Below are positions 4,454 to 50,824 of a stretch of 64,000 bases of DNA, piece after piece. The position numbers and the translations under genes are program-made. The stretch is from Escherichia phage REP5. The notes below the pieces were generated by a model. That model had not been told where the DNA came from and searched no databases. It worked only from the letters and a program-made list of their open reading frames with translations. How positions within the stretch are numbered: the stretch's first letter is position 1; every line of letters starts with the position of its first letter. The stretch lies in the sequence record OQ174504.1; one strand, given 5' to 3'.

Positions 4454-4845
4454 TGGTATGCCTCTTATAAGACCTCTTAAAAGGCTTTTAAGATAAAAGA
4501 TAGATATCCAGAAAGATATCTGTTTAAATAGCCTTTTTAGAGGAACCTTTTAAGTAATCTTCTAAGTATTTATAAGCCTACACCTTGTCAAGTACCTTGT
4601 CAACAACTTTTTTAACTTGCAATAGTTCTTGACTTGTTGTATGGATTACTGTACCATCTTACTTAAAGCTGTAGGTCTGCCTTGTTCTACAAAGGAGACT
4701 TAATGAGAAAATCAAATAAACCGAAGAAAGGTAAGAATACCAATCACTGTAAGGAATCAAAAAGGGTAGAATTAATCTACTATTCGTCCTCTGAAATTGG
4801 TCTGTACCTGTTCTTTCAAAATTACAGAAGACAAGAGGATTATCT

Positions 4846-5079
4846 ATGTGTAGTTCCCAATTAGAAATCGCAGATATTATAGATTTATATCAAACTGCAA
4901 AGAGTCATGGCTATATAACCTCAATTGGAAAGAATAGTCACTATGATGCTTTGACTGGAATGTATTTCAGGGCAATGGCTCAATCTAGTGAACAACACTT
5001 AATGGTTTCTTCCAGTGAGTTTACTTCGTTTCTCTATTGCAGCAAAATTATAAACCGCAGGAGAACTGAAAAATGTTAA
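4846..5079 (+). CDS. Hypothetical protein
   Basis: 77 aa ORF with AGAGGA Shine-Dalgarno upstream; first gene of plus-strand block. Confidence 0.4.
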   Translation: MCSSQLEIADIIDLYQTAKSHGYITSIGKNSHYDALTGMYFRAMAQSSEQHLMVSSSEFTSFLYCSKIINRRRTEKC

Positions 5080-5663
5080 CAGTAAGTTTTAATTACAATA
5101 GTGATGGCTCTGTATCAATTAATTCACCATATGCAAATGACCTACTTAAAGAGTTAGTAAACCAGTGTGAAAGAGGTCTTCACTATGTTCAAAATTCTTT
5201 TAAACAGAAAACTATTGCTAATAACTTGATGCGTGTAACAGTGACGACATCGAATCCAAATTATGATATTGATAGTGGAAGCCCTTACTCTTTAGTGGCT
5301 CTTGGAGAGCTAAATCAACTTAAACTTGTATGCCACGACTCAGAAACATTTCTTAAGGTATTTTCCAACCTTATCCATAATAATAAGTACAGCTACGTTG
5401 ATGGTAGTGTAAACTTCTATCCAGCAAACTATACATGCTTGTTGATTGATAATATGGGAAGTGGCAGGATTGAACCTACAGAAATTTCATTTGATGTGAA
5501 CTCTAGTCCAGATGCAGAAACAGGTAAGAACTTTGATATGAGTTACGCATTGTCACTCAGTAAGAAATCCGAGTTCATTGATTATGTCAATGGATTTGGT
5601 TTTAAGTTTGATGAGAGTATGAATCTTAAAAAACTTAAGAACCTACTTAAGACTAAAGCTTAA
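5073..5663 (+). CDS. Hypothetical protein
   Basis: 196 aa ORF, SD caggaga upstream. Confidence 0.6.
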   Translation: MLTVSFNYNSDGSVSINSPYANDLLKELVNQCERGLHYVQNSFKQKTIANNLMRVTVTTSNPNYDIDSGSPYSLVALGELNQLKLVCHDSETFLKVFSNLIHNNKYSYVDGSVNFYPANYTCLLIDNMGSGRIEPTEISFDVNSSPDAETGKNFDMSYALSLSKKSEFIDYVNGFGFKFDESMNLKKLKNLLKTKA

Positions 5664-5855
5664 GTGTGAATAGGGGCTGATGCCCCTTTAATTATTTATA
5701 AGCACACCCTATAAAGGTAAAAGTGTAAAAGACTTTATTGCTCCCACAACTACACATCAATTCCGTGAAATAGTGAAGTGCGTCATTGTTGGTGATGTGT
5801 CCCACTATATAAAGTTTATTTTGAGATTAAACGCACATTTAGAGGATAAAAAGAA

Positions 5856-6737
5856 ATGATTAAAGCAAAGACTTACCCAGACTTCAAAGAGTTTGTAAAA
5901 GGTTTTGTTGCAAATGTAAAGGCTGGTAAGAGATATGATTTTAGAACATATCAAGAGGCTATTTTACCGCTTACCTATAGCTCGTATTGGCCTGAAGCTG
6001 ATATTGCAGAAGTTAAGAAGTTTGACTATAAACCAGACTATAAAGTTCCATTTAGTGATGAGTTGCTTTACAGCATTGGTGCTCAAATGAGAACTTCTGA
6101 CTTCTTCATGGACTTACAATATGCAATTATCAATGGTAAAGACGTTGATACAGTTTATTGTGAATGGCTGGCAAGAGTTAAACCATTCTCAATGTTGAAT
6201 GCTAAGTTGAAGGATGCTGTCAAGACACCAGAAATCACTCAGCAACCAACCAATCAAACAGTAAATGAAGGTGGTACACTTACCCTAAGCATTATTGCAA
6301 CCAATGCAACTGGGTATCAATGGAAGAAAGATGGTTCTGACATTCCTTCGGCTACAGAAGCTACCTATAGCAAGTCTGGCGCACTGCCAGCAGATGCAGG
6401 TTCATACACTTGCGTTGTAACAGGTGCAGGTGGTTCTGTCACTTCCAACCCTGCAACAGTTACTGTGAACGCACTTCCAGTAATCACTCAACAGCCAACC
6501 AATCAAGAAATCAATGAAGGTGAGACCTTAACGCTGAATGTTGTGGCAACAGGTGCAACAGGTTACCAGTGGAAGAAAGGTGAGGAAGACATCCTCAATG
6601 CAACCTCTGCAACTTACACCAAAGAAGGTGCAACTGCTGCTGATTCAGGAAGCTACACCTGTGTAGTTACTGGTGCAGGTGGTTCTGTAACATCTAACGC
6701 AGCAACAGTTACAGTTAATCCAGTAGGAGGGGCATAA
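5856..6737 (+). CDS. Protein with two tandem Ig-like domains at C-terminus
   Basis: 293 aa; two near-identical ~80 aa repeats (ITQQPTNQ..GSYTCVVTGAGGSVTSN..TVTVN); stop overlaps lysozyme start (TAATG). Confidence 0.7.
   Translation: MIKAKTYPDFKEFVKGFVANVKAGKRYDFRTYQEAILPLTYSSYWPEADIAEVKKFDYKPDYKVPFSDELLYSIGAQMRTSDFFMDLQYAIINGKDVDTVYCEWLARVKPFSMLNAKLKDAVKTPEITQQPTNQTVNEGGTLTLSIIATNATGYQWKKDGSDIPSATEATYSKSGALPADAGSYTCVVTGAGGSVTSNPATVTVNALPVITQQPTNQEINEGETLTLNVVATGATGYQWKKGEEDILNATSATYTKEGATAADSGSYTCVVTGAGGSVTSNAATVTVNPVGGA
6237..6722 (+). repeat. Tandem 243-bp coding repeat (two Ig-like domain copies)
   Basis: Direct nucleotide and peptide repeat 6237-6479 / 6480-6722. Confidence 0.7.
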
Positions 6738-7201
6738 TGCAACTCTCAAGAAAAGGTTTAGAAGCTATTAAGTTCTTTGAAGGCATTAAGCTAGAGGCTT
6801 ACGAAGACTCTGCCGGAATCCCAACAATCGGGTATGGTACAATCCGTATTGACGGAAAACCTGTTAAGATGGGTATGAAGATTACCGCTGAACAAGCTGA
6901 ACAGTATCTTCTTGCAGATGTTGAAAAGTTCGTTGCAGCAGTGAACAAAGCCATCAAGGTTCCAACTTCTCAGAATGAGTTTGATGCACTTGTAAGTGAA
7001 ACATACAACATTGGTATCACAGCTATGCAGGACTCTACATTTATCAAGCGCCACAATGCTGGTAATAAGGTCGGTTGTGCAGAAGCTATGCAGTGGTGGA
7101 ACAAGGTTACAGTAAAAGGTAAGAAGGTCACTTCAAACGGCCTGAAAAACAGACGTAGAATGGAAGCTGACATTTATCTTGACAGTGTATATCCAAAGTA
7201 A
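6737..7201 (+). CDS. Lysozyme (T4 e-type, GH24) endolysin
   Basis: 154 aa; EAYEDSAGIPTIGYGT catalytic region typical of T4-type lysozyme. Confidence 0.8.
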   Translation: MQLSRKGLEAIKFFEGIKLEAYEDSAGIPTIGYGTIRIDGKPVKMGMKITAEQAEQYLLADVEKFVAAVNKAIKVPTSQNEFDALVSETYNIGITAMQDSTFIKRHNAGNKVGCAEAMQWWNKVTVKGKKVTSNGLKNRRRMEADIYLDSVYPK

Positions 7202-7206
7202 TATCT

Positions 7207-7236
7207 TCATAGGCTCCTTCGGGAGCCTTTTTTATT
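7207..7236 (+). terminator. Rho-independent terminator
   Basis: Hairpin aggctccttcgggagcct followed by T-run. Confidence 0.6.
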
Positions 7237-7252
7237 TTCTAAGGAGAAAACT

Positions 7253-7651
7253 ATGAAACTTTGGGCTAGTGACTTTGGAACTTTTAAGTACACTCGTAAT
7301 GGCTCGCTTGTACGCATTGTCGGAAACAATGTGGTTTCAAGAGGTGACAAGGTATATACACGGTTTACTGTAGAGCTTGTTGAGCTGTCGCCTATTGAGT
7401 CTGTGAACAATGGACTCTTCAAGTTTGAGACTTACAATGTCAATGAACATGGACAATTCAACCCTCTTGGTGAAAGTGGACTTGATATTATTTCAGAACA
7501 CCCATTGACAAAAGAGCAACTTGCAAGTTATTATAAAACTGTTCTTGAAAGGCAGTTAGCAACACATGAACAAGAAGCTAACTATCATTTACAACATTGT
7601 GAAGCTTTAAGAGCAAAAATCGAACAAGCAGAGAGAGGTTTTTATGAATAA
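7253..7651 (+). CDS. Hypothetical protein
   Basis: 132 aa ORF, SD aaggagaaaa upstream. Confidence 0.6.
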   Translation: MKLWASDFGTFKYTRNGSLVRIVGNNVVSRGDKVYTRFTVELVELSPIESVNNGLFKFETYNVNEHGQFNPLGESGLDIISEHPLTKEQLASYYKTVLERQLATHEQEANYHLQHCEALRAKIEQAERGFYE

Positions 7652-8039
7652 TAGCAGTCATATCCACGTTAAAGTTGATGTCAGTCGTTACAGTGAAAAT
7701 GAAGAATTAGACCTGCAAGATGCTCTTCTCTTTGAGAAGAATGGCAATCTGCATTTGCATTTTGAAGGTACAAACACATATCTCCACAGATGCCGAGATG
7801 ATGCCGATGGTTGTCCTGTTTTTGCTTGGTACAATTTAGAGTTTCCTCTTTATGCAATCCATTATCCAGATGGTGGAGAAGACTGGACAACTCAATCAAT
7901 CTTTGATGAGCTTAATGGTGTTCCAGTTGAGCAAGAAGAGCGAGAGCCTGTTGAACTTACCTTCACCTTTATCAAAGAAGAGAAAGTAGGTGACTTGTCA
8001 GTAACTGAAGCAATTCAAGTCTCACAGGTGATTCGTTAA
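7644..8039 (+). CDS. Hypothetical protein
   Basis: 131 aa ORF overlapping upstream stop. Confidence 0.6.
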   Translation: MNNSSHIHVKVDVSRYSENEELDLQDALLFEKNGNLHLHFEGTNTYLHRCRDDADGCPVFAWYNLEFPLYAIHYPDGGEDWTTQSIFDELNGVPVEQEEREPVELTFTFIKEEKVGDLSVTEAIQVSQVIR

Positions 8040-8332
8040 TGAGTAAAGTACAGGTTATTTTCCCTATTTGTGACTTCTCACTAGAGCGTGAACTTGACCT
8101 GTACGAAGAAATTACTGACGAAATCATCTGGTCTGTTGTAGAAGAGGCTATCAAGAAACTGTATGGTGGCCTCTTAAATCCATCAAGTAAAAAGCTCACT
8201 ACTAAGCAAGTAGCTGATACGTACACTTCATATGATGCCTACAACAAGCCTTTTGAGAACACCTGCTTTGACCTTATGGTAGGTAATAATAAAGTCAACT
8301 ATTTCTTCGTCAGAGAGTTTAACGATGAGTAA
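8039..8332 (+). CDS. Hypothetical protein
   Basis: 97 aa ORF, start overlaps previous stop. Confidence 0.55.
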   Translation: MSKVQVIFPICDFSLERELDLYEEITDEIIWSVVEEAIKKLYGGLLNPSSKKLTTKQVADTYTSYDAYNKPFENTCFDLMVGNNKVNYFFVREFNDE

Positions 8333-8669
8333 GCTCCATGTCACAGTTTACAAAAACTTCTCAGATATTAAAGAGTCTTTAACAAATAAGCTTGACATGC
8401 AACGGAAAAGACTCTTTTTAATGTACGATATCGACAACTACGACCATCCTAAAGAGTTTAACTACAAAGATGGTACAAAGGTTGTTGAATTTGAAGATTC
8501 TGTAACGGTGTATGTCAAGTATGACTTACCAGCGAAGTATATAGGGATGTTAGAGTATTACATATTCAAACATACAGGTATGCGTGGTGAATCTGTCAAG
8601 ATATCTTCTATAGAAGTTTTTGAGAAACCTAACACCCAACTTAAAAAGTATTTAATGAGGAAACTGTAA
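8325..8669 (+). CDS. Hypothetical protein
   Basis: 114 aa ORF. Confidence 0.55.
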   Translation: MSKLHVTVYKNFSDIKESLTNKLDMQRKRLFLMYDIDNYDHPKEFNYKDGTKVVEFEDSVTVYVKYDLPAKYIGMLEYYIFKHTGMRGESVKISSIEVFEKPNTQLKKYLMRKL

Positions 8670-9250
8670 TGTCCGAAGAGCAACAGAATATCACTCCACA
8701 AGTAACACTGGTACAGCATTTTGGAAACATTGAAGGGTGTATTGCACTTTTTCAGCCAAGTATTAACTCTCCCGCAAAAGTTTGTAAGTTGACTATGAAT
8801 GTCAACAATATCAGTGTTTGTCTTGTTGATGAAGTTCAGTACTTCAAGTTCAATGACAGAGAAGTTGATGCAGCTTTGTTGAAGTATCGTGCAAATCTCG
8901 AAAAAGACATTGACCACAAAGAGCTTGTAACACTGTTTGGTGACCTTCACAAGCTTCTTGAAAAGGTTATGAAGCGTACATACTACATGAACAACGGTTC
9001 AATTATCACCACTTTGATTTCACCATGTATTTCAGAGCCAATTTTAACTGATGATGGTGGCTACTACGTGGTAGCATCAGCAGACTCTGATTGGTGGATG
9101 AAGAACACAGCACTTAAAACTGTGATTGAGGCTATCCGTGAACACATACCTTCATTCAGCCCGTGGAAAGGCAAAAGTGATGATTTCATTGCACTATTGA
9201 GTGAAGAGAGTAACAAGCGCAGTGCATTGCTGCCTAAAAAATACTCTTGA
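8669..9250 (+). CDS. Hypothetical protein
   Basis: 193 aa ORF, start overlaps previous stop. Confidence 0.6.
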   Translation: MSEEQQNITPQVTLVQHFGNIEGCIALFQPSINSPAKVCKLTMNVNNISVCLVDEVQYFKFNDREVDAALLKYRANLEKDIDHKELVTLFGDLHKLLEKVMKRTYYMNNGSIITTLISPCISEPILTDDGGYYVVASADSDWWMKNTALKTVIEAIREHIPSFSPWKGKSDDFIALLSEESNKRSALLPKKYS

Positions 9251-9333
9251 CCGAGTATACAACACTGGTTATGATGGGAGCTATCGAGAGGTAGTTCCCT
9301 TTTTAGTTTCTAGATAAGAGACATGGTAAAAGA

Positions 9334-9552
9334 ATGAAAAAACTAACTACAGTTGAAGATTACTACAAACTGTCCCTGTTAGAACAGTATCGTAGGAGCC
9401 AGAATATCAGAAAATGCTATGGTAAACACGCTGAAGGTGACTTTTACCGTTGCTACGATGCAGATTTAAAAGGTGTAACACCTAGAGGGAAAGTCCTGCA
9501 AAGACTTGTTGACCTTGAGTGGAACAAACGATTGAGAGGGGTTGGGAAATGA
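9334..9552 (+). CDS. Hypothetical protein
   Basis: 72 aa ORF. Confidence 0.45.
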   Translation: MKKLTTVEDYYKLSLLEQYRRSQNIRKCYGKHAEGDFYRCYDADLKGVTPRGKVLQRLVDLEWNKRLRGVGK

Positions 9553-10052
9553 TTTACGAAGAAAGATACAAGATAGATTATCAGAAGACTGGTCATCACA
9601 CTTCACTAAGAGTAACCAAACCAAATGGGGATACTGGTATCATAGCACATTTTGGTGGTGATTATTGGTACGGCACAGGTTGCTTTGAAGGCTACACTCA
9701 AGAATACTTAAAAGCTTTCTACAGAGACTTTACAAATGACTACAACAGGGTTGTTGAAGAGAAGAATAAGTGCATTAAGCATGAATACCATGCCAGAGGT
9801 TGTCTGAATATTGTTATGATACTGGTTTTCTTCTTAGCAACATTACTAGCCGTATCAGCAATCAGCTACATAGCTCAAGACTTGACCATTACACAGATTA
9901 CTGCAAAGGTACATGATGTTTGGTACTTGTATGCTGTTCCTTTAGCTGGTATCATCATCTCACTAATGAGGTTCAGAGTTCATAAGAAACGACTTAAGGA
10001 CTCTGAGGTTAAACTTGAAGAGGTAAGTAAAGAATGCAACCTACAATTATAG
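9519..10052 (+). CDS. Hypothetical membrane protein
   Basis: 177 aa ORF with two hydrophobic C-terminal segments; true start may be internal. Confidence 0.55.
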   Translation: MEQTIERGWEMIYEERYKIDYQKTGHHTSLRVTKPNGDTGIIAHFGGDYWYGTGCFEGYTQEYLKAFYRDFTNDYNRVVEEKNKCIKHEYHARGCLNIVMILVFFLATLLAVSAISYIAQDLTITQITAKVHDVWYLYAVPLAGIIISLMRFRVHKKRLKDSEVKLEEVSKECNLQL

Positions 10053-10128
10053 CTGTATGTGTTCGTTTTGCAATCGCTGAAATGATTAACAAGGCAATCT
10101 TAAAAGATGCCTATGGAGAGACTAAGTA

Positions 10129-10353
10129 ATGATTAAGACACCTGTACCAATTTTTGGATTTCCTTCTATAGAAGAGTTTAAAGTTTATCTTGACAAAAAC
10201 TTCTACAATGAGCAGCCTGTTACTCTGCTGAAGAGTGACTTATCAGAGCTTCTTGATATGGTTATCAAGGCAACTCCTGAGAAGGAGCCTGAACAGAAAG
10301 CTGAGAAGAAGACCAGTAAGAAATCTGATAAGAAGACTGAAAAGTCTGAGTAA
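10129..10353 (+). CDS. Hypothetical protein, lysine-rich C-terminus
   Basis: 74 aa ORF. Confidence 0.5.
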   Translation: MIKTPVPIFGFPSIEEFKVYLDKNFYNEQPVTLLKSDLSELLDMVIKATPEKEPEQKAEKKTSKKSDKKTEKSE

Positions 10354-10406
10354 GAACTTGAGGGGTTACTTGATAGCCCCTTTGTAGAAACTTAGAAGGT
10401 AGCGAA

Positions 10407-10835
10407 ATGAAAGAGCATGTAGGTAAAGAGCTTGACATTGTAGATGCAAAGACACAGAGATATATAACTACTGTTAAGTTTCTTGGAATTAGTGATATGA
10501 GTGATTTTTATCCTCTCCACTGCATAGTGCTAGACAAATTTGAGGTTTGTGGTATTAATTTTAATGAGGATAACTTTATAAGCTTTGATAAGGACGGTTT
10601 CTGGCGTGGTAAGAACCACCCTCAAGCAAATGATTTTGATATGCGTCTAGTGATACCACAAAAAGGTAACCAACAAAACGTAAAAGATATCCTTGTAGAA
10701 GCCTATGCAGAAGGTATAATAGATGTTGTGAATGATGTTGAAAAAGCTTTAAAACTCATCATGCCACATTTAGAATCTGGAAAGCTGACTTTAGAGATGC
10801 TTAATAGGGTTATTCGGAGAGCTTATGAAAATTAA
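10407..10835 (+). CDS. Hypothetical protein
   Basis: 142 aa ORF. Confidence 0.6.
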   Translation: MKEHVGKELDIVDAKTQRYITTVKFLGISDMSDFYPLHCIVLDKFEVCGINFNEDNFISFDKDGFWRGKNHPQANDFDMRLVIPQKGNQQNVKDILVEAYAEGIIDVVNDVEKALKLIMPHLESGKLTLEMLNRVIRRAYEN

Positions 10836-11364
10836 AGAAGTTGAAGGTAACTATCTAGTCCTTGATTGGAGTGATGTTCAAGAAGCACTCTCCAAAGAGA
10901 GTCTTAGCATACTAGAGCAACTTATCTTCTCAGTACGGCATATCAGAGAAGTTAAAAATGGTAAAGAGCCACTTGAAGGAATCTTTGTAGAGAAGTCTTA
11001 TCCGTTCTATGAAGACACCTTGCAGAAAGTTAAAATGTACTTTAAACAGAAGAACCGTAAAGTGGTCACTATGGTATCTCTTGGTGGACAGAGTATGTCT
11101 GTGATGGAAGATATCAACCCTAAGAGACCGAGTAAAGGCGTTTGTATAAAAATCACAGGACATGAAGAGTATATCTCAGTGGATGACTTTAGTGCATTCT
11201 GTAATGGGTCTTGTGTCTTTAATGGTTTTCACTATGATATCCGAGTATACCCAATCAAGGGAGATGATATCATGATGCAGGTATTCGATAACAACAATGG
11301 ATTCACTCATTTTTATCAGACAACCAAGTCATCACTGAAGACAGTTCTGGAAACACTGATTTAA
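10825..11364 (+). CDS. Hypothetical protein
   Basis: 179 aa ORF, last gene of plus block. Confidence 0.6.
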   Translation: MKIKEVEGNYLVLDWSDVQEALSKESLSILEQLIFSVRHIREVKNGKEPLEGIFVEKSYPFYEDTLQKVKMYFKQKNRKVVTMVSLGGQSMSVMEDINPKRPSKGVCIKITGHEEYISVDDFSAFCNGSCVFNGFHYDIRVYPIKGDDIMMQVFDNNNGFTHFYQTTKSSLKTVLETLI

Positions 11365-11370
11365 AATATC

Positions 11371-11400
11371 TTAAGAGCCTCCTTAATTGGGGGCTTTTTA
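11371..11400 (+). terminator. Rho-independent terminator
   Basis: Hairpin agcctcc..gggggct followed by ttttt. Confidence 0.5.
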
Positions 11401-11459
11401 TTGAGTAAAATTTACGAAATTTATATTTTTTATAAAATTTTATCGGTTGTCCCAACCTC

Positions 11460-12640
11460 TGGGTCACCATCATATGTGAATAAAAATATCTATCCTTCTT
11501 AACAACCTTCTTAATCTTACTCTCTATATATAGTTATATAGTACTATATAGTATCTTAGTATCTATCTAGTGGTCTTAATAGCCCTCTGTATAAGCCTTC
11601 TAACAAGCCCTCTAACAATCCTTCTAAACACTCTTCTAACAAGCCTTCTTAACAACCTATACAATCACCTTAACCATCTCTCTATACCCTCTTAGAAGCT
11701 CCTATACACCTCTTAATCTCTAGGTTACCTGTGTTACTTAACAGTAACCCATTATGTCAGCTATGTTACCCTCTATAGGTGTTCACTAGGTATTACTAAG
11801 CCTCTATATAGACTGTTTTAACAAACTTAACAGGAATATCTTTACAGACCTTATCTCACAAGGTCTAACACGGTACTAACAAGGTATCTTATAAGCCTGT
11901 TTATGCCTGTATTTTTAAAAGACTGTCTAGGTAATTATTCAGAATTTTAAAATTTTTATAAAATAGGACTATCAAGTCATTTTTTAGGGTCTTTGAAGGA
12001 ACTCAAAAATATCTGTAGAAGATGTATATCTGCTTGGTAGCCCTTAACAGCTCCCTTACAAGTACTTTGCAAAATTTTAAAATATCCTTAACAATCTCTT
12101 AACAACTCTCTCAAGCTTTTAACATCTCTTTAGAGGTCTTAACAGATTCTTAACAGAACTAACAAGGCTGTAACAAGTTCTTAACAGTCAATACATGGTC
12201 TTTACAGAGTCTTAACAGATGACTAACAAGAGCTAACAAGTTAATTTTTAAGAGTTATTTTGTTAAGATAATTAACAAGTTCCTAACAAGTGTTTAATCT
12301 TTTTAACAAGCTATTAACATGGTCACTATCTCTGGTCTTATCGTTCCCTTTCTTTCTTAGTGATTCTCTAAACATACCTCTTAAAAGCCCTCTATAGCTC
12401 TTTGTAAGCTCTTTTAAGCCTCTTCCTAGTAATTACACCCCAACTATACAGACACCTATTTATAAGGCTTTACAGGAGCTTTAAAGGCTATGTCAAAGAC
12501 TCTTACAAGGCTTTTACATGATTTTAACAGAGATTTAACAAGGGGCTAACAAGTCTCTAACAAGTGCCTTAAAAGCATAACTATGTAGGGATTGTTAAGA
12601 AATTGTTAAGAAAATGTTAAGGGGGCTAGCATTTACGTAA
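11460..12640. repeat. Non-coding array of dispersed short repeats, consensus YTAACARG (more than 25 copies)
   Basis: No ORF of 60 aa or more; cttaacag / ctaacaag recurs every 10-40 bp on the plus strand; AT-rich. Confidence 0.7.
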
Positions 12641-13020
12641 CTTTTAAGCTACTTCAAAGTAACTTTATAGCCCCTATAACATACTTTTAAGACACTATCA
12701 AGCCCTTTTTAATAGTTCACAAGATAGCTAACGAGATGATAAAGCTTACACCCTTATAAGGTTCTTTTAAGGCTCTAGAAAGCTCTATAAAGGGCTTTTT
12801 AAAGGGAGTTAATGCAATCCCTTAAGTTGGGTTGATAAGGCTGTTATAGGGCTTTATAGAGCGTTTAAATGGTTGCCCTTCCCTTTCGGGTTATGGGCTT
12901 ATATTTAAGTTGATTTGATAAAAGGCTATAGGGTAGACTATAGAGTTATTGCTTTTTAAGGTCTGATAAGATTCTGGAAAGGAAAGGGAAAGGGTTGTAT
13001 AAGGGATTTGATAAGACGTA

Positions 13021-13045
13021 AAAAAGCCCCTATGAGGGGCTGTAT
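13021..13045 (-). terminator. Rho-independent terminator of minus-strand block
   Basis: Hairpin agcccctcataggggct followed by T-run on minus strand. Confidence 0.5.
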
Positions 13046-13059
13046 AAAGGTATCTGGGG

Positions 13060-13329
13060 CTATTTAGCCCCGTTGCGTCGATTAGTTAGTGCCTTCTTTG
13101 TCGTAGTACAGGGAGACAATTTTTCTCCCCAATAGTGATAAGTATAACCATCCTTGAGAACTTCTTGTTTTGTTTCCTCCCAGAACTTTTCTGAAGGATT
13201 ATAGCCTTTGATAGTCTGACTGATAAGACCTTTCACCATTTCAAAGGCGTTATCAGTTCCTACAATGTCAAATTTAACATCCAGAGAGGAAAAACCGAAC
13301 TCGTTAGCAGTAGCGCGGATAGTTGCCAT
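13060..13329 (-). CDS. Hypothetical protein
   Basis: 89 aa ORF preceded by conserved cassette and RBS TAGGAGA. Confidence 0.6.
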   Translation of the reverse strand: MATIRATANEFGFSSLDVKFDIVGTDNAFEMVKGLISQTIKGYNPSEKFWEETKQEVLKDGYTYHYWGEKLSPCTTTKKALTNRRNGAK

Positions 13330-13397
13330 TTTTGAATCTCCTAGTTTAAGGGTTTTACTTAGTGGGGAAGGTCATTCCCTCCCCGTTGATTGACAAT
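13330..13397 (-). promoter_or_regulatory. Type A regulatory cassette (stem-loop plus conserved RBS)
   Basis: ctcctagtttaagg..ggggaaggtcattccctcccc hairpin immediately 5' of the start codon. Confidence 0.5.
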
Positions 13398-13928
13398 TTA
13401 CAGATTTTTGATTGTCTCGTCAATATCTTTTTCAATATCTTTTAAAGTTTTTTCTAAGTTCTTGATATTGAAAGATAAGCCTTCTCCCAGTGTCTTAGAG
13501 TAACCACTAGGACGTGAGTTATATAATTCGATTTCTTCCACTTCGAAGAGACTAACCAACTCACCGCTTACACTGTAAGCCATAGAAACAGTATTTACAG
13601 GGGCTTTATAGAACTTGTTTAAGGTCTTGATAGAACGCTCATAAGCCATTTTATAACCATTTAAAAGGTTTTTAACATGATTACGAACGTTTTTACACTC
13701 ATCTAAGTAAAGCCCTAAAAACATCGGGAGAAGTTCCGCGACAGCTTGCATAAAGTGAGAGACTACAACAGTAGAAACATTACGACGATGAACGTAATAA
13801 GCCCCGTTTTCTGATTTGGTGATGGTTGCAAAGTGTACACCATTGCAGAGAAATTCGTATGTGTCTTTTACAGGTTTAGACATTACAGCATTTGAACGAA
13901 TGAAGTTGATAGCTTTGAACTTGTTCAT
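13398..13928 (-). CDS. Hypothetical protein
   Basis: 176 aa ORF. Confidence 0.6.
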   Translation of the reverse strand: MNKFKAINFIRSNAVMSKPVKDTYEFLCNGVHFATITKSENGAYYVHRRNVSTVVVSHFMQAVAELLPMFLGLYLDECKNVRNHVKNLLNGYKMAYERSIKTLNKFYKAPVNTVSMAYSVSGELVSLFEVEEIELYNSRPSGYSKTLGEGLSFNIKNLEKTLKDIEKDIDETIKNL

Positions 13929-14000
13929 TTTTGAATCTCCTAGTTTAAGGATTTTATTCAGTGGGGAAGGTCATTCCCTCCCCGTTGATTAGTAATTTAC
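13929..14000 (-). promoter_or_regulatory. Type A regulatory cassette
   Basis: Near-identical copy of the 13330 cassette. Confidence 0.5.
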
Positions 14001-14152
14001 TTGTTTTGATATCTGATTGCAAGCAATTTTTTAAGTTTATCTTTAAAGAAATCTTTTAAGTGAATCCCTTTAAGATAAACCCCCTCGAACAAAGTTACCA
14101 ATGTCAAGAGGGATTGTCAACACTTTTTTAGAAGTTTTTTGTAAGTTCTTGA

Positions 14153-15717: not shown

Positions 15718-15790
15718 TTTTGAATCTCCTAGTTTAAGGGTTTTTATTTAGTGGGGAAGTCATTTCCTCCCCGTTGATGTGTAATTTAAT
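15718..15790 (-). promoter_or_regulatory. Type A regulatory cassette
   Basis: Hairpin ggggaagtcatttcctcccc plus conserved RBS. Confidence 0.5.
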
Positions 15791-16309: not shown

Positions 16310-16582
16310 TTACACTAAATGCAGCTTTTTACCTTTTACCATGATGTAACTTGATGCGCTATTGCTGTAAACATCCTGATAAATTCTGCGCAAACGTCCT
16401 TCGTAGTATACTTTCCAACTAGTTGGAATCTTTTTACCGTATCCGGTAGCAGTTTTTTGGAATCCTGCAAGTTGCCAATCCAAAATATGCTGTTCAGCTT
16501 GTAAATCCTCGAAGTGCATTACACCGTTCACGTAGTGGCGTAGGGTTACGTTTAAGGTGCGACCGTTGTTAGTAGTATGCAT
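16310..16582 (-). CDS. Hypothetical protein
   Basis: 90 aa ORF. Confidence 0.55.
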   Translation of the reverse strand: MHTTNNGRTLNVTLRHYVNGVMHFEDLQAEQHILDWQLAGFQKTATGYGKKIPTSWKVYYEGRLRRIYQDVYSNSASSYIMVKGKKLHLV

Positions 16583-21263: not shown

Positions 21264-22076
21264 TTATTCTTGACTGTAATAGTTGACAAGTGAAATCGCT
21301 TGATTCATCAACAACTTATCAGCCTGTGCTCCGCGACCAGCTTGTAATGCCAGTTGGTATACCTCTGTAACATATTTGTTAGACATACCTTCACAGTAGT
21401 CATTATAGTCTTCCCAAAAGGAAAATGCAGCATCACCATATAGGCGTAGTGTAATTAACATTGCTGCACGAATCCCAGAAGAATATTTCCGTTTTGCGTT
21501 TACTACACCTTTAAGCTGTACTTCAAGAGAATCAATTTGTTCCAGCTCATTTTTAAAGTCGTTAAGATATTTAACTGTTTCAGTGTTAGATACTTGTTGT
21601 ACACCGTAGTATGCAGCAACATACTTAATAGCAGTTGCCCAAGATGCTTTCATCAGTTCTGACTCTGGGTTGAAAGAAATCATCTTCATATTTCCGTAAT
21701 AAACTTCTGAAGGTTTTTCTCTTGCTAACTCAGAGTCAAAATGAGTGTACAAATCTGTGACATCCAATATGGAGTTCACATGGTATATAACTACAATCAA
21801 GTTTTCTGGTCGTGTCAGGTTACCAACTTTCCATGCCTCTCGACGTGAGTGCCCATCAATGATGAACAGTGAACTGCCGAACTTAGCCACATGGACTACT
21901 GTTTGGTCTGGTGATACGTCACCATTAAGGTGTTTACTTTTCAGACGCTTAAGTGTATTTCGTTGACGAGGGTTTTCTTTGTAACGTTTTTCATTAAGAA
22001 AATCCTCGACACTGATAATCTTAGTGTGAATTTTAACAACCTTGCCATTCAGTGCTACATTGATGCTGTTTGCCAT
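21264..22076 (-). CDS. ParB/sulfiredoxin-like domain protein
   Basis: 270 aa; IIDGHSRREAW resembles the ParB-like nuclease domain motif. Confidence 0.5.
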   Translation of the reverse strand: MANSINVALNGKVVKIHTKIISVEDFLNEKRYKENPRQRNTLKRLKSKHLNGDVSPDQTVVHVAKFGSSLFIIDGHSRREAWKVGNLTRPENLIVVIYHVNSILDVTDLYTHFDSELAREKPSEVYYGNMKMISFNPESELMKASWATAIKYVAAYYGVQQVSNTETVKYLNDFKNELEQIDSLEVQLKGVVNAKRKYSSGIRAAMLITLRLYGDAAFSFWEDYNDYCEGMSNKYVTEVYQLALQAGRGAQADKLLMNQAISLVNYYSQE

Positions 22077-36045: not shown

Positions 36046-36439
36046 AGATACAGCACCAATGTTGGCACGACCTACATAAAACTCTTCACCATATTCGTTA
36101 TGGTATGGTGATAAAAATGCTCTACACTTGTTGTTCAGGTAAGTTCGCTAAGCTTACCCCGCTTTATTCAAGCTGCTTACTGTCGCCAGTAAGTCCAGAC
36201 TATATCTTCTACTTATTTCTAAGTAGCGTACCATTTCGAGTCGCTTGACCCTACACCGCTACATTCATCACGGTTAGTCGTTCGGCATTTAGATGTATTC
36301 AAACTCATATTCGAAGTTATTTGGCATGTAAGACCCCTATGTTGTATAGTTTCTTACATCGTACATCATTTAGCACAGGATTGTCTACATCTGTAGAGTT
36401 TCCCTGTTTAGGCACGTTTTAGATGAGCTATAGAGCTTG
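36046..36439 (-). other. Putative group I intron in nrdD (boundaries approximate)
   Basis: About 394 nt between the two nrdD ORFs; on minus strand P-like CAGGGAAAC, Q-like AATCCTGTGC, R-like GAACGACTAAC and S-like GATATAGTC occur in canonical order. Confidence 0.5.
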
Positions 36440-37639
36440 TTAACCCATCGGCGAAATAACCTTGCCAGAACGCTCAAAAGCTTCTGCTACAGCACCATGA
36501 CCAGATACACTTAAGAAGTCTGGATACATTGCTTTAGAACAACACTCAATAGCTTTACTGTACAGGTGGCCTTGACAGATATTCTCATTGTGTCTCTTCT
36601 GGTCATAAATATAAACCAGTTTAGGGAATACAACAGGCTTCTTGCTCTTACCTTGTCCATTCATACGAACATCTAGGAGAGTACTTGCAATCATGTATTG
36701 CAGTCGGTTGTCTTCATTAGACATGTCTGAGTCAAGTAACCCAAATGTCAAAGTTGTGAATGCAAAATCCCCACGACTACAAGGTACAGTATTTAGTTTC
36801 ATTTCAAGTGACTGGAAACCTTGAGTTAGCTCAATCTGTAGCTGCTCCATGACATAATTGTGGTGATGTTCTTTAGGAATACCATAAGATGCTGCTTTCT
36901 CAGCATGATAGCGTAGAGACTTCTTAGCATACGGTACAAGTACCTTATCAATCTCTGCTAAAGTAAAGCCACCAAATTGCTGTGCAGTTGCTGAAAGTAC
37001 TACGTCACCAATAACCTGTAAGGCTGATAGTACAGATTTAGGTTCACAGTATTCAATGCCAGACATTTCAAAGCCACCTTTCAGTACTTTACCAATGTCA
37101 AACAGGCAACAGTTGATACCACCAAAAATTAGGTCTCTTAAATCATGGATATAGATAAACCCTTTTTCAATGGCTTCCAATTCCTCTGGTGTTAAATGGT
37201 ACTGTTTAAAGATTTCTTTAGTCAGGTAACCACGGATAATTGAACCTTTCGTAGAAATTAAACTGCTGTCAAAGTTAGCATTTTCACGGTCACCTAAGAA
37301 GAGTGTATCTTTAGTCTTCTGGTAGAGTTCATCCCAGTTTTGAGCAACCTCTTTACGGTAATTTCTATATGTTGAGTAAGACTCATAAATCTCGTGATTG
37401 ACTTCTGCCAAAGCACCCTCAACAATACTGTGAATATCATTTACTGAAACGAGTAAATTATTCTGCTTAGTAGATTTTACCAGAATCCTCATAAATGCTG
37501 ACTCAAGAGCTTGAGTAACATCTGGTGGAAGCTCTTTATAACCAACTCTGTTAGCTGACTTTGTGACTGCTGCTAAAACTTTTTTGATATCAGGTTCTTC
37601 AAGTGAGCCATTCTTTTTAATAATCTGTACTTTGTTCAT
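36440..37639 (-). CDS. nrdD: Anaerobic ribonucleoside-triphosphate reductase, N-terminal exon
   Basis: 399 aa ORF with ATP-cone-like N-terminus; continues into 35179-36045 after the intervening sequence. Confidence 0.75.
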   Translation of the reverse strand: MNKVQIIKKNGSLEEPDIKKVLAAVTKSANRVGYKELPPDVTQALESAFMRILVKSTKQNNLLVSVNDIHSIVEGALAEVNHEIYESYSTYRNYRKEVAQNWDELYQKTKDTLFLGDRENANFDSSLISTKGSIIRGYLTKEIFKQYHLTPEELEAIEKGFIYIHDLRDLIFGGINCCLFDIGKVLKGGFEMSGIEYCEPKSVLSALQVIGDVVLSATAQQFGGFTLAEIDKVLVPYAKKSLRYHAEKAASYGIPKEHHHNYVMEQLQIELTQGFQSLEMKLNTVPCSRGDFAFTTLTFGLLDSDMSNEDNRLQYMIASTLLDVRMNGQGKSKKPVVFPKLVYIYDQKRHNENICQGHLYSKAIECCSKAMYPDFLSVSGHGAVAEAFERSGKVISPMG

Positions 37640-41746: not shown

Positions 41747-41764
41747 TTTTAAATCCTACAGGTG

Positions 41765-41786
41765 AAAAGAGCCTCCGAAGAGGCTC
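41765..41786 (-). terminator. Rho-independent terminator
   Basis: Hairpin gagcctcttcggaggctc plus T-run on minus strand. Confidence 0.5.
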
Positions 41787-41792
41787 CCTAGT

Positions 41793-43183: not shown

Positions 43184-43422
43184 TCGGACTCCTTAAAATA
43201 TCTGTTAACTTTTAGCTCTCGTGTTTCAATATATTCTAGATGCTCACGTAGCTCTTGACGTTTAAGCATGAGGTGCTGCATTTGAGATTCAACAGCTTCA
43301 ACTTCTTTAATTATTGACTCTTTAGCATTTGCAAGGATGCGCTCAAGTTCCTCAATCTTGCTGTCAACTTTTGCTACATGACTCACAGCTTTACTTTTGT
43401 TAAACATTTTATTCTCTCTCAA
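43159..43422 (-). CDS. Hypothetical coiled-coil protein
   Basis: 87 aa ORF. Confidence 0.5.
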   Translation of the reverse strand: MRENKMFNKSKAVSHVAKVDSKIEELERILANAKESIIKEVEAVESQMQHLMLKRQELREHLEYIETRELKVNRYFKESECLTQENQ

Positions 43423-43428
43423 TAGTTA

Positions 43429-44956: not shown

Positions 44957-45018
44957 TATGGCTCTCCATATGAAAAAGCCCCATACTAAGTACAGGGCTT
45001 TAAAGTAACTTTTAGAGA

Positions 45019-45876
45019 TTAGTCTTCTGTATCGAAGTCTTCATCTTCTTCGTCATCTGGGTCTGGCAAGTCTTCATCATCACCATCATCAGAATCGTTC
45101 GAAGGTTTGTGGTCTTTTGCGTCTTCTTCAGTGATTTCACCGTTATCTTCAACACCATCAAGACCAAGCATAGCCAGTTCATCTTCATCCAGTTCAGGTT
45201 CACCATTAGCACCGTTACCACCAGTGTAAGGTACAAGAGTATCAATGATAAACTGTTCCTGAATAGGTTTTGTCAGAACATTGTTCTCAAAAGTGTAGAA
45301 GTGAGTAGAAAGAATCACACTACCAAAAGAACCGTTACCAACTGCAATATCTGGATGAATTACATCATAGTTCTTGTCATCTTCATGTTTATCAGATGCT
45401 TGAGCTTTGATTTTCTTCATCGGCTGTTTAACAGCTACACGCTTACCATTTACTTCTTCAATCAGCATCACAGGGAATGACTGTTTAGCTGTCCATACAG
45501 CACCATCTTTATAAGCTGCTGCACGACTTACTTTCAAGATGTAGTAAGTGTCTGCTTCAAAAGGTGGTTTACAACCAAACTTCTCTTCGAAGTCGTCTGC
45601 ATCAACTGCTTCAGTAGTAACTTTATCCCATCCTTCTGGATTTTTCTTAGACTTAGTAAACTCTTTAAACAGTTTGTTACCGTCTTCTGCCAGAATTGAT
45701 ACGCTGTAGTTACAATCTTTTCCTGGGAATTTCTTATCAATAGACTTACCTTTTCCCGGACGTGGTGAAGTATTCAGGTAATAAAACCAGACATCTTTCA
45801 GCAGGTAACGCAGAGTTTGACGTTCAGTACCATTGTACTTCTCTACCGGAGCTTTCATTTTAACAACTTTAGACAT
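45019..45876 (-). CDS. Putative ssDNA-binding protein with acidic C-terminal tail
   Basis: 285 aa; last ~60 residues dominated by D/E ending DEDFDTED. Confidence 0.5.
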   Translation of the reverse strand: MSKVVKMKAPVEKYNGTERQTLRYLLKDVWFYYLNTSPRPGKGKSIDKKFPGKDCNYSVSILAEDGNKLFKEFTKSKKNPEGWDKVTTEAVDADDFEEKFGCKPPFEADTYYILKVSRAAAYKDGAVWTAKQSFPVMLIEEVNGKRVAVKQPMKKIKAQASDKHEDDKNYDVIHPDIAVGNGSFGSVILSTHFYTFENNVLTKPIQEQFIIDTLVPYTGGNGANGEPELDEDELAMLGLDGVEDNGEITEEDAKDHKPSNDSDDGDDEDLPDPDDEEDEDFDTED

Positions 45877-45946
45877 TATTTAAACCTCTATCTCAATTTA
45901 TGAAGAGTACCAATTCTAATTTGTTGATACTCTATTGTCAAACATT

Positions 45947-46097
45947 AATTACTGGAAGTTGTGCTTATCTTTAGAAGCTGCTTTACGTGCAGTTTTTCCA
46001 GTTCTTACACGTTTTTCTTCATAGTATTTTGCTGGTTTTCCAGCAGTGGCTTTTAAAGAGTCCCCAAAAACTTTTTCAAATGCTTTAGAGTGTTTCA
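45947..46097 (-). CDS. Small basic protein
   Basis: 49 aa ORF not in supplied track; GGAGA RBS 8 nt upstream. Confidence 0.35.
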
Positions 46098-46350
46098 TGA
46101 TATTCTCCGATATACTTGATATTCAAACACATTTTCTTTCATTATAAACAGCCAACCAATATTATGCTGAGGCAGTGTAATGATGACTGTAATCATACTT
46201 TGATGGAACTGTTGTTCTATTTCAACTTCTCCATCGCATTTCATGTGGAGCATTCTATAGAACCTATCAATCTTTGTCAAACACTCTTCATGAAATTTAT
46301 TTAAGCTTTTTTCTTCAAAGAAGGGTGTGAACCCCTCTCTTTTATAGCTA

Positions 46351-48342: not shown

Positions 48343-48529
48343 CTCTTCGTTGTAGTTCTGCCTTCAATCCATTTTCAATCTTGTCCAGTTCATGAATTTC
48401 ATCTGCAATCTCTTTCCTTCGTGATTCAACTCTCTTAAGACGTTCAATCATTACCTCATTGGAAAGAGATGAGAGTTCCACTAAACGGTGGTCAATAACT
48501 TTAAAATTGTCTTTTACTCTCATCTTCAT
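48329..48529 (-). CDS. Hypothetical coiled-coil protein
   Basis: 66 aa ORF. Confidence 0.45.
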   Translation of the reverse strand: MKMRVKDNFKVIDHRLVELSSLSNEVMIERLKRVESRRKEIADEIHELDKIENGLKAELQRRGANV

Positions 48530-48537
48530 TCTCTCTT

Positions 48538-49281
48538 TTAAACTTTAATGATGGCTCTTAGCTTGTTCTCAAGGTCTGCAAGAGTACCATTATTATGAAT
48601 AATGTCACGCTCATATTTTGTAGAAATCCCATTTTCTGAAACATGTGATGAAACTTTGTCCACATTGTCTCTTTTTACTTCAATAGTTTGGTGTGCAAAT
48701 CTACTCAGCCATTCAGCTTCAGAGTCAAATCTTAAATCACTGATTAAGACAAAACCATATTGGTTTCTAAGTGAGCACATTTCATGGAATCTAACCATTC
48801 TTTTTTCAAGGTCTTTAGACCAGAACTTGTCGCCCATTACTTTACGGACAACTTCAGTACCCCAAATCTGTTGAATTTGTCTTGATGAGAATTTATACTT
48901 TTTACTAAACCCCAGACGTGTCAATAGAGTCGGTTTAGCAACCTTCTTAAGCTCCATGATTAATCGTCCGGTTAACTCTGACATAAGCTTGAAGTCCATA
49001 TGGTAACGTTCATCTCTGAAGGTGAACTCCATAGCTTCCGTAACTTTAAACATCAGTTCAGGATATGATAAGTCAAAAACCTGCGGAGTCTCTTTAGTTT
49101 CACCGTACAGGTCATTCCAAGTCAAGTCAAATATCTTTGATGCAGATAGTTTAAGGTTGTCTGCAAAGGCCATTACAGCAACATTGTAGCCATACTCATC
49201 CTCTAAGATGTTCTTCACAACAGAACATGAGGTATCTTTTCCAGAACGTGCCTTTCCAGTAAATGCAATAATATTACTCAT
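48538..49281 (-). CDS. Deoxynucleoside monophosphate kinase
   Basis: 247 aa; N-terminal IIAFTGKARSGKDT P-loop as in T4 gp1. Confidence 0.7.
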   Translation of the reverse strand: MSNIIAFTGKARSGKDTSCSVVKNILEDEYGYNVAVMAFADNLKLSASKIFDLTWNDLYGETKETPQVFDLSYPELMFKVTEAMEFTFRDERYHMDFKLMSELTGRLIMELKKVAKPTLLTRLGFSKKYKFSSRQIQQIWGTEVVRKVMGDKFWSKDLEKRMVRFHEMCSLRNQYGFVLISDLRFDSEAEWLSRFAHQTIEVKRDNVDKVSSHVSENGISTKYERDIIHNNGTLADLENKLRAIIKV

Positions 49282-49342
49282 TTTATCTCCCTTAATTACT
49301 AAAAAGCCCCCAACTAAGGAGGCTTGTAAGATTTATAAAGAC

Positions 49343-50143
49343 TTAGTGCAGTTGGTCAGCATACTCTTTTTCAGCCATAGCTGAGATTTGCTTCACAAAA
49401 TCATCACCGAAGTTAATGCGTAGCTTCTCTTCAATGATTGAAGCACCAATATTCACCAAAACATCATTGATTGCTTGCATACTAACGCCACCAGTCATTT
49501 CCTCAATGAACTCAATACTCACACCCATCATCTGTGACAGTTGGATTAGTGCAACGATATTCATCATCGTAGAGATAGCTGGAATCATCAGTGCAACTTT
49601 CACCTGAAGTGGTTCAATGTCAGCTACAGAGTCATTTTCAACAGCTTCTTCCAAAGATTCTTTAGTTTGCTGGATAATCTCTTTGATTCGTGGGTTTAAT
49701 TCTTCTACGCCCCAATCAAGTTTTTCATATCGTGAAAGTTTCTCTTCCATACGCTTCTCAAGAACAGCCATAACAGCACTCGTTGATGAGATAAGCGTAT
49801 CAATAATGAAATCAGTGTCCTTAGTCAGCAACAGTTCCTTATCTTCGTCTGACATCCTGATATAGTCATTCTTTTGCATTTCATAAAAAATGAACTCAGC
49901 AAGTGCATCAACACCAACCGCAATAGATGCCAGAGCAAGTGTAGTGTCTGTCAACATCATATTAACCTGTTCTGCAAAAGCACCGTTATCAGACTTGTCT
50001 TCAGGCAAGTTATAGCTTGCAGGCATAAACCGTTCTGTGTAGTTATTACCACGAAGAATCATAGCCATGCTTTCTACGGCATTGATTAAGAATGCTTCAT
50101 CAACACCTTTCTCTTCAAGCATCTTTTCTACATCGATATTCAT
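49343..50143 (-). CDS. Hypothetical acidic protein
   Basis: 266 aa ORF. Confidence 0.6.
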   Translation of the reverse strand: MNIDVEKMLEEKGVDEAFLINAVESMAMILRGNNYTERFMPASYNLPEDKSDNGAFAEQVNMMLTDTTLALASIAVGVDALAEFIFYEMQKNDYIRMSDEDKELLLTKDTDFIIDTLISSTSAVMAVLEKRMEEKLSRYEKLDWGVEELNPRIKEIIQQTKESLEEAVENDSVADIEPLQVKVALMIPAISTMMNIVALIQLSQMMGVSIEFIEEMTGGVSMQAINDVLVNIGASIIEEKLRINFGDDFVKQISAMAEKEYADQLH

Positions 50144-50144
50144 A

Positions 50145-50567
50145 TTATTTCTCTCTCAGTTGGTTAAGTTTCTTTCTAGAACATTTTAAGTTTTCTGATG
50201 AAGAAAAGTCAAGTGTCTTTTCAGAACGTGGATAGTAGTGTCTATCCCAAGAAGTTTCGACATCGTTAATCAGTGATGCTAGATTACACAGGTCTGTACC
50301 ACTTTGCAATCTCTTTTTAAGAGAATCTAGTAAAGCAACTGTGTCTTTGGCTTTACGTCTAGCTGTAGCAACATCTTTCATATGCTCAAAGACAGAGCAT
50401 TTTAAGTCATCTTCATAGTTTTCAGACAACTCTATTTCATGTTGTATATCAACCATTCTCCTGTGATGGTGAGCATATTCCCGTTGAGCAGCAATGTCAA
50501 GTTCTTCCAACTTCTGCAAAGCCCTAACAAAGTCAGCTATGTCTGGGTGAACAAACATTTTCTGCAT
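50145..50567 (-). CDS. Hypothetical protein
   Basis: 140 aa ORF, first gene of minus-strand block. Confidence 0.55.
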   Translation of the reverse strand: MQKMFVHPDIADFVRALQKLEELDIAAQREYAHHHRRMVDIQHEIELSENYEDDLKCSVFEHMKDVATARRKAKDTVALLDSLKKRLQSGTDLCNLASLINDVETSWDRHYYPRSEKTLDFSSSENLKCSRKKLNQLREK

Positions 50568-50824
50568 GTAAGCCTCTTTTAAGTAACTATTAAGTTTTAA
50601 TCTTTTATCTTAACGTATTCTATACGTTATACTTTAAAGCTTTTTAAAAGCTATTAAATAATCTTTTAAGAGTTTTAAAGTATCTGTATAGTTAAACTGT
50701 TAAGTAACCTTTTAAGTAAAAACCCACTTCGCAAAGATTAACACCTTGTCAAGTGCATTGTCAACTTGCTTTTTATAATTTTTTGCAGTAATGTATGAGG
50801 TTAATGATTTTAGAGGGAGTAAAA

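Follow-up and report, generated by a model that had tools for sequence, protein, structure and literature searches.

A tandem direct repeat in the genome of Escherichia phage REP5 (sequence record OQ174504.1; the stretch of 64,000 nucleotides [nt] analysed here is referred to as the window) is probably the core of three promoter cassettes that lie on the minus strand, point leftward and would be used by the host RNA polymerase with a sigma-70-type factor. The reverse complement of the repeat is GTTGACAA-N4/5-CTTGACAA(GG), that is, two exact sigma-70 -35 hexamers (TTGACA) on the minus strand. Because of the orientation of these hexamers, a conserved TAnnnT on the minus strand and the position of the third site between minus-strand genes, we assign the motif to candidate promoters upstream of open reading frame (ORF) 41 and the tRNA/structural block, of ORF97 and the replication/nucleotide-metabolism block, and of ORF22 (Felix O1 numbering), and not to the plus-strand blocks, at the heads of which an earlier reading of the letters of the window (the original prediction) had placed it. 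The element appears to be of a known kind, a phage promoter of the host sigma-70 type, which departs from the usual architecture in having a minimal -10 and, in the spacer, a second -35 hexamer that is conserved; apart from the unusual doubled box it is an ordinary host-type promoter.

Felix O1-like phages are widely used in Salmonella typing, biocontrol and therapy, and the Felix O1 genome paper states that the organisation and timing of their transcription are unknown. Of the four transcription blocks, two are given a probable leftward promoter by the present analysis, as is one internal unit; the strand assignment is corrected, and the three sites are joined into a single family that had escaped the original analysis. 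The combination of a strictly conserved doubled -35 hexamer with a minimal -10 is also a small, clean puzzle in promoter mechanics.

Occurrence and architecture of the tandem hexamers

Exact copies of the motif are found at positions 4585-4603 (site 1) and 50746-50764 (site 2), and a looser copy, with one additional linker base and ATGTCAA as its first half-site, is found at 14102-14120 (site 3); on the plus strand the sites read ACCTTGTCAAGTACCTTGTCAAC (4583-4605), ACCTTGTCAAGTGCATTGTCAAC (50743-50765) and CAATGTCAAGAGGGATTGTCAAC (14099-14121), respectively. Pattern searches of the window gave two matches to TTGTCAA-N3-6-TTGTCAA (0.01 expected) and three to TGTCAA-N3-8-TGTCAA (0.28 expected), counts that were reached in 0 of 100 shuffles in either search. 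Phage REP7 (88,978 base pairs [bp]; window position 1 is REP7 24,906, with a few small indels) served as the whole-genome reference, and a heptamer-pair scan of it returned only these three sites with zero or one mismatch outside coding sequence. The near-identical repeats at two places and the related third copy noticed originally are present beyond chance, a few bases from where they had been placed, and the genome-wide search proposed as a check on them gives a non-random set of three intergenic sites, judged by REP7 and the shuffles.

The two divergent intergenic regions (40/41 and 96/97 in Felix O1) contain sites 1 and 2, respectively; site 3 is flanked on both sides by minus-strand genes (Felix O1 ORF21 and ORF22) and has no plus-strand gene downstream. 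The motif does stand ahead of the first gene of each plus-strand block, as had been noted (98 nt before the ATG at 4703 and 59 nt before the DNA polymerase ATG at 50825), but in a divergent region it is equally upstream of the minus-strand starts at 4453 and 50567, and site 3 has no such plus-strand neighbor. At all three sites the first minus-strand gene is co-oriented with the candidate promoter and starts 115-160 nt downstream of it (at 4453, 50567 and 13928). At site 1 the ORF41 homologue is followed by the gene for an RNA-binding protein, a tRNA cluster and structural genes; the candidate at site 2 faces a block of about 37 kb containing replication, nucleotide-metabolism and rII genes.

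When aligned in the minus orientation, the three sites are similar over about 110 nt, from an A-tract through both hexamers to ACTTAAAAGGTT, which follows the proximal hexamer by about 30-40 nt (coordinates are given in Table 1). The distal hexamer is an exact TTGACA at each site and is followed by a hexamer that has the A2 and T6 of a -10 element within 17 +/- 1 bp, namely TAGGCT (17 bp), TAATCT (18 bp) and TAACTT (17 bp), each of which matches TATAAT at only three of six positions. The proximal subsite of the upstream (UP) element has the consensus AAAAAARNR; the A-tract segments AAAAAAGTT, AAAAAGCAA and AAAAAAGTG end 1-3 nt before the hexamer and resemble this consensus with a register shifted by 1-2 nt. 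An Rfam gathering search of the window returned tRNAs and two group I introns only, and nothing at the three sites.

In the cassette proposed here, a UP-like A-tract would be followed by the distal TTGACA, a spacer of 17-18 bp holding the second TTGACA, a minimal TAnnnT, and then a leader of 115-160 nt opening with repeats of the ACTTAAAAGGTT type. RNA polymerase would dock by binding the A-tract with the C-terminal domain of its alpha subunit and the distal hexamer with sigma region 4, and the DNA would melt at the weak -10, with predicted starts near 4568 (4567-4569), 50728 and 14085; the transcripts would serve the ORF41/tRNA/structural genes, the ORF97-to-rII block and ORF22-23, respectively. 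This design shares with canonical Escherichia coli sigma-70 promoters that carry UP elements, through which many lytic coliphages are transcribed by the host polymerase (for example, T7 A1-A3, T5 and T4 early promoters), the exact TTGACA, the 17-18 bp spacer, the A2 and T6 of the -10, an A-tract just before the -35 and the co-oriented genes. It differs from them in a -10 that is minimal at all three orthologous sites and in a second perfect TTGACA within the spacer, the conservation of which equals that of the first.

Table 1. Coordinates in the window of promoter elements and of the main genome features
Feature	Positions	Strand	Remarks
Site 1 distal TTGACA	4598-4603	-	Proposed -35 of leftward promoter upstream of ORF41 homologue (4082-4453)
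Site 1 proximal TTGACA	4586-4591	-	Inside spacer, about -23 to -18
Site 1 -10 candidate TAGGCT	4575-4580	-	17 bp after distal hexamer
Site 1 A-tract TTAAAAAAGTTG	4604-4616	-	Resembles proximal UP-element subsite
Site 2 distal TTGACA	50759-50764	-	Proposed -35 of leftward promoter upstream of ORF97 homologue (50145-50567)
Site 2 proximal TTGACA	50747-50752	-	Inside spacer
Site 2 -10 candidate TAATCT	50735-50740	-	18 bp after distal hexamer
Site 2 A-tract TATAAAAAGCAAG	50765-50778	-	UP-like
Site 3 distal TTGACA	14115-14120	-	Proposed -35 of internal leftward promoter upstream of ORF22 homologue (13398-13928)
Site 3 proximal TTGACA	14102-14107	-	13 bp start to start from distal hexamer
Site 3 -10 candidate TAACTT	14092-14097	-	17 bp after distal hexamer
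Site 3 A-tract TCTAAAAAAGTG	14121-14133	-	UP-like
Leader motif ACTTAAAAGGTT	4544-4555, 50706-50717, 14050-14061	-	About 10-45 nt after predicted start, all three cassettes
Rightward promoter candidate, ORF40 block	4629-4657	+	TTGACT-17-TACCAT
Rightward promoter candidate, DNA polymerase	50766-50794	+	TTGCTT-17-TAATGT, back to back with site 2
Single-hexamer promoter candidates (-35)	1058, 2476, 2567, 4069, 15811, 26003, 35175, 45941	-
Single-hexamer promoter candidates (-35)	56864, 58748	+
Minus-strand block	ending 4453	-	ORF41 homologue, RNA-binding protein, tRNAs, then terminase and structural genes
Plus-strand block	4703-11433	+	Tail protein, endolysin, others
Gene-free stretch	11433-13060		1.7 kb, between convergent plus and minus blocks
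Minus-strand block	13060-50567	-	About 37 kb: replication, nucleotide metabolism, rIIA/B, small early genes
Plus-strand block	from 50825	+	DNA polymerase to thymidylate synthase

Conservation and alternative readings

We compared the window with Felix O1, Citrobacter phage Michonne (Mooglevirus, about 78% identity), Escherichia phage mistaenkt (Suspvirus) and Hafnia phage SarahDanielle (an unclassified member of the Ounavirinae, barely alignable), a set that covers four Ounavirinae lineages; the divergent genomes were drawn from GenBank records, and the relatives found through the ORF97 protein were only those 99-100% identical. Two exact TTGACA hexamers are kept at the same loci in all four comparison genomes, and all 12 instances in the five genomes have a TAnnnT 17-18 bp after the distal one, against a background of 4-5% at random positions. 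From start to start the hexamers are 12, 12 and 13 bp apart in the Felix group but 11 and 10 bp apart in the Hafnia phage, so that the inter-hexamer distance varies over 10-13 bp while the distance from the distal hexamer to the -10 holds at 17-18 bp. The -10 itself is TAGGCT, TAGCCT or TACTCT at site 1 across the five genomes (also TAAGTT and TAGTGT when IMG/VR contigs are included); at site 2 the window shares TAATCT with Felix O1 and mistaenkt, Michonne has TAGTCT and SarahDanielle TAATGT (at 17 bp); and at site 3 it is TAACTT in the compared genomes and in 15 contigs, and TAATGT in two contigs.

The same pattern is seen at population level in metagenomic contigs of IMG/VR that contain the sequence upstream of the ORF41, ORF97 and ORF22 homologues (n = 27, 21 and 17, respectively; three truncated contigs and two distant non-Ounavirinae homologues were left out of the count). 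Both hexamers and the T1, A2 and T6 of the -10 are invariant in 65 of 65 contigs (27/27, 21/21 and 17/17), the -10 always coming 17-18 bp after the distal hexamer, while the three internal -10 bases vary and the linker is hypervariable, with six, four and seven different sequences at sites 1, 2 and 3 (the linker has 6 nt at site 1 and 7 nt at site 3). Over the 62-nt core of site 2, polymorphisms among the 21 contigs are confined to the linker, save in one contig at the far downstream end. Such a footprint is what a sigma-70 promoter with the distal hexamer as its -35 should leave. It also shows that the proximal hexamer, invariant although the neighboring linker varies, is itself under strong selection.

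Bacteria and phages often have tandem promoters that overlap, and the two hexamers, both being perfect, might be the -35 boxes of two overlapping leftward promoters with starts 10-13 nt apart. The proximal hexamer is not followed by TAnnnT at 15-19 bp in any of the 12 instances in the five genomes, however, and the region in question is not conserved between genera. With no -10 behind the proximal hexamer, we rejected this arrangement as extremely improbable.

The motif can also be read on the plus strand, either as Pho-box-like TGTCA repeats about 10 bp before a -10 or with TTGTCA as a -35 matching at five of six positions. Pho boxes (the sites of PhoB, which take the place of the -35) are direct repeats that contain TGTCA (consensus CTGTCATAWAWCTGTCAY), and the plus-strand repeats resemble them in lying about one helical turn apart; a -10-like hexamer is found 10 bp past the second TGTCA (TATAAT at site 2 and TAACTT at site 1), and at site 1 the arrangement TTGTCA-18-AATAGT with an upstream TG scores 9/12. 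These plus-strand hexamers are not conserved: Michonne and mistaenkt have TGAAGA or TGAAAC in place of TATAAT, and TAACTT has become TTAGTT in Michonne, whereas the minus-strand TAnnnT is kept everywhere. The spacing of 10, 11, 12 or 13 bp and the hypervariable, G+C-rich linkers (for example, GGTAC, TGCAC and TCCCTC) are unlike the fixed 11-bp register and A/T-rich linker of a Pho box or another activator site of the OmpR family, and site 3 has no plus-strand gene. Both divergent regions also contain a separate conserved -35/-10 pair for rightward transcription (4629-4657 and 50766-50794). On conservation, spacing and the context of site 3, the plus-strand reading was rejected, and we regard it as very unlikely. 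The original prediction that TTGTCA is part of a promoter element or a regulator site stands as far as the promoter is concerned, the half-sites being, in the reading preferred here, the minus-strand -35 hexamers.

The rightward candidate of the ORF40 block is conserved in Felix O1 and Michonne and has a counterpart, TTGACA-17-TAGTAT, in the Hafnia phage; that of the DNA polymerase gene corresponds to TTGCTT-17-TAATGT in mistaenkt, TTGCTT-17-TAGGGT in Michonne and TTGCAA-17-TACTAT in SarahDanielle. Each divergent region would accordingly contain two promoters set back to back, of which the leftward one would be that of the motif flagged originally.

One of the three sites has been met before. 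Whichard et al. 2010 predicted a Felix O1 promoter, 'P41', as TTGACA-N15-TATAGG at 21515-21541 (PMC3185647). P41 and site 1 are the same locus, and the first hexamer of P41 (start 21515) is the distal hexamer described here; Escherichia phage vB_EcoM_ASO1A also carries a minus-strand consensus-scan 'promoter' feature at this locus. In the P41 and ASO1A annotations the -10 is paired at 15 bp and the second hexamer is not noted, whereas here the -10 lies at 17-18 bp. The Felix O1 paper found no other homologous sequences in the 40-41 or 96-97 regions (PMC3185647); contrary to this statement, a copy of the cassette is found at 96/97, and another at 21/22. Beyond consensus-scan predictions, the Felixounavirus, Ounavirinae and Bas63 literature searched yielded no description of the three-member family, of the doubled hexamer or of its conservation.

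Several observations weigh against the assignment of the three sites to leftward promoters. A consensus promoter scanner that requires at least four of six matches in the -10 does not call them, because their -10 hexamers match TATAAT at three positions only. Most of the compared genomes are closely related, so that the independent observations amount to about three sites in two to four lineages, and the canonical promoter model assigns no role to the second hexamer, conserved as it is. The literature searched contains no transcription-start or in vitro transcription data for any Felixounavirus. Finally, in reverse transcription polymerase chain reaction (RT-PCR) experiments on Felix O1, the ORF41, 42, 97 and 98 transcripts were maximal at 25 minutes and not at 5 minutes, while ORF22 peaked at 5 minutes; the label 'immediate early' is thus unsupported, and the timing in these experiments is too coarse for assignment to a temporal class.

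The second hexamer

In a canonical open complex nothing reads the positions from about -25 to -17 as TTGACA, and we infer that the second hexamer cannot contact the polymerase there. At the three orthologous sites the -10 hexamers of the tandem promoters always match TATAAT at three of six positions, with no internal position matching; because this is the weakest possible -10, these promoters should depend heavily on their -35 and UP contacts. Speculatively, the second hexamer might re-engage sigma-70 region 4 after about one helical turn and so tune escape or an early pause; alternatively, it might be the operator of a shut-off factor, or it might compete non-productively for sigma region 4. 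We consider it possible, though doubtful, that the invariant spacer TTGACA is a dedicated Ounavirinae regulatory device, being either a recapture site for sigma-70 region 4 or the operator of a phage shut-off protein that mimics region 4. In the former version, one possibility is that it times escape or pausing at promoters wholly dependent on -35/UP contacts.

The lambdoid phage 82 promoter PR' offers a partial parallel. As summarized in PMC3326312 (citing Perdue & Roberts 2010), sigma-70 region 4 there binds a -35-like element once the polymerase has advanced by about one helical turn, which adds an early pause at +14/+15. By analogy, and in principle only, the REP5 cassettes would resemble PR' in having an extra -35-like hexamer near the promoter at an offset of similar size (10-13 bp here). 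Unlike PR', they show by eye no -10-like pause element or TAnnnT in the first 25 or so nt after the predicted starts. They also differ from T4 middle promoters (MotA/AsiA; the MotA box, with a TGCTT core near -30, stands in for the -35), in that the -35 and the spacer element are both TTGACA.

A regulator-based explanation, close to the regulator-binding site of the original prediction, has to be considered at this point, in which the TTGACAA/TTGTCAA pair is the operator of a phage or host regulator controlling the divergent regions and the likeness to a -35 is secondary. The spacer of a promoter is a classic position for a repressor, both hexamers are invariant though one alone can be the -35, TTGnCAA forms a small palindrome, and the phage encodes a regulator of the HTH_3 family (59411-59710). 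A repeat spacing that ranges over 10-13 bp across lineages is, however, hard to fit to a protein contacting both repeats, and the seventh base (A) varies where the sigma-70 hexamer does not. SarahDanielle keeps tandem hexamers at two sites with no detectable HTH homologue, and the distal hexamer matches the generic promoter design of the phage. We therefore judge an operator of this kind unlikely; a factor that binds the proximal hexamer alone is possible.

Annotations call the HTH_3 protein (plus strand, 99 amino acids) a transcriptional regulator or 'repressor'; the phage is a virulent one. The protein gives a sub-threshold match to Sigma70_r4 (22 bits against a cut-off of 24.1) and occurs in Felixounavirus, Suspvirus and Mooglevirus, with none detected in the Hafnia or Erwinia relatives; in SarahDanielle neither tblastn (to E = 100) nor Pfam searches of the syntenic ORFs found a homologue. 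Its candidacy as the cognate binder is weakened by this lack of a homologue in a motif-bearing Hafnia phage.

The doubled hexamer is not confined to the orthologous sites. In the Kolesnikvirus Erwinia phage phiEa104, the orthologues of sites 1 and 2 are single-hexamer promoters (TTGACA-17-TAGAAT and TTGACA-18-TACATT), and an independent tandem is found at 16494-16540, with TTGACA-N6-TTGACA and, 17 bp after the first hexamer, TAAAGT (four of six matches). The phiEa104 tandem stands directly after the last early gene and points into a gene-free region.

Single-hexamer promoter candidates, leaders and genome setting

The leftward cassettes belong to a wider set of promoter candidates in the window. 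TAnnnT follows 20 of the 83 TTGACA hexamers at 17 or 18 bp, compared with 4.8% at random positions, and about ten noncoding single-hexamer sites combine an A-tract, TTGACA, a spacer of 16-18 bp and TAnnnT, nearly all of them co-oriented with the next gene and two directly upstream of the tRNA cluster. An A-tract like that of site 1 precedes the candidates at 2476, 2567, 4069, 15811 and 56864. Their -10 hexamers (TATAGT, TAATAT, TAAAGT, TAAATT, TAGAAT and others) mostly match TATAAT at four or five of six positions. From these sequences the phage clearly appears to use host-type promoters, in agreement with the Felix O1 genome, in which no phage RNA polymerase and no specificity-modifying proteins were identified (Whichard et al., PMC3185647).

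Some of these promoters are associated with stem-loops or repeats. The -35 of the tRNA-cluster promoter at 2567 lies inside a hairpin, GGGTATTGACAATGTGTTTAATACCC (about 2550-2575), which the Felix O1 paper lists as the bidirectional terminators t42/t43 (PMC3185647). A stem-loop, ATCAACGGGGAGG(G)AATGAC(C)TTCCCC, is repeated in minus-strand leaders at 13960-13990 and about 15760-15790 and again at 13365-13385, coming after promoters of the small-early-gene region. In joining a promoter to a stem-loop, these cassettes recall T4-type phages and their promoter-early stem-loop modules. The noncoding plus-strand sequence at 58330-58720 (and also 56973-57121) contains three units of about 125 nt, followed by a canonical promoter at 58748. 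In every unit, motifs of the CTTTTAAGAGGGTCTTTTAA type come first, then GGTNN pentamers in succession (GGTATGGTCAGGTATGGTGTGG...), then a hairpin-like segment (for example, TAGTTAATCGGAGCTACATAAAAATCCGATTACA).

The minus-strand leaders of the tandem promoters (4476-4567, 50576-50717 and 14025-14079; 115-160 nt) are made up of units of about 12 nt, for example, ACTTAAAAGGTT, ACTTAACAGTTT and AACTATACAGAT. The Hafnia phage retains the leader motif at site 1 as TACTTAAAAGAC, and in both the Hafnia and the Erwinia phage the orthologous promoters are followed by TTCTnnAnAG arrays similar to the leader units. The site 2 leader also contains a perfect hairpin or palindrome at 50612-50628 (AACGTAT-TCT-ATACGTT), which is kept in mistaenkt and reads TATGTAT-AAC-ATACATA in Michonne, with a C:G to T:A double change.

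The gene-free stretch at 11433-13060 is densely filled, on both strands and with a modal spacing of 11 bp, with short motifs of the CTTAACAG, CTAACAAG, CTTAAAAG and CTTAACAA types, of which it holds 28 of the 70 copies in the window; CTTAAAAG alone occurs 29 times, where 5.7 are expected. In Felix O1 (12.5-13.5 kb) and Michonne (75-76 kb) these 8-mers likewise reach their peak in the corresponding regions, with the two divergent promoter regions coming next. The stretch may be an origin, a packaging region or a protein-coating region, and the second hexamer of the tandem promoters, if it is a regulatory device, might act together with the 11-bp-phased CTTAACAG/CTTAAAAG arrays of the leaders and of this stretch.

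By megablast, the window belongs to a Felixounavirus, with 100% identity to Escherichia phages REP6 and REP7 over test stretches and 95-99% identity to about 210 Felix O1-like phages. The two group I introns (Rfam RF00028) lie at 52905-53188 on the plus strand (59.2 bits) and 36176-36557 on the minus strand (53.6 bits). They interrupt the DNA polymerase gene and the gene for the large subunit of anaerobic ribonucleotide reductase (nrdD), with one intron in each, which accounts for the split ORFs annotated in REP7.

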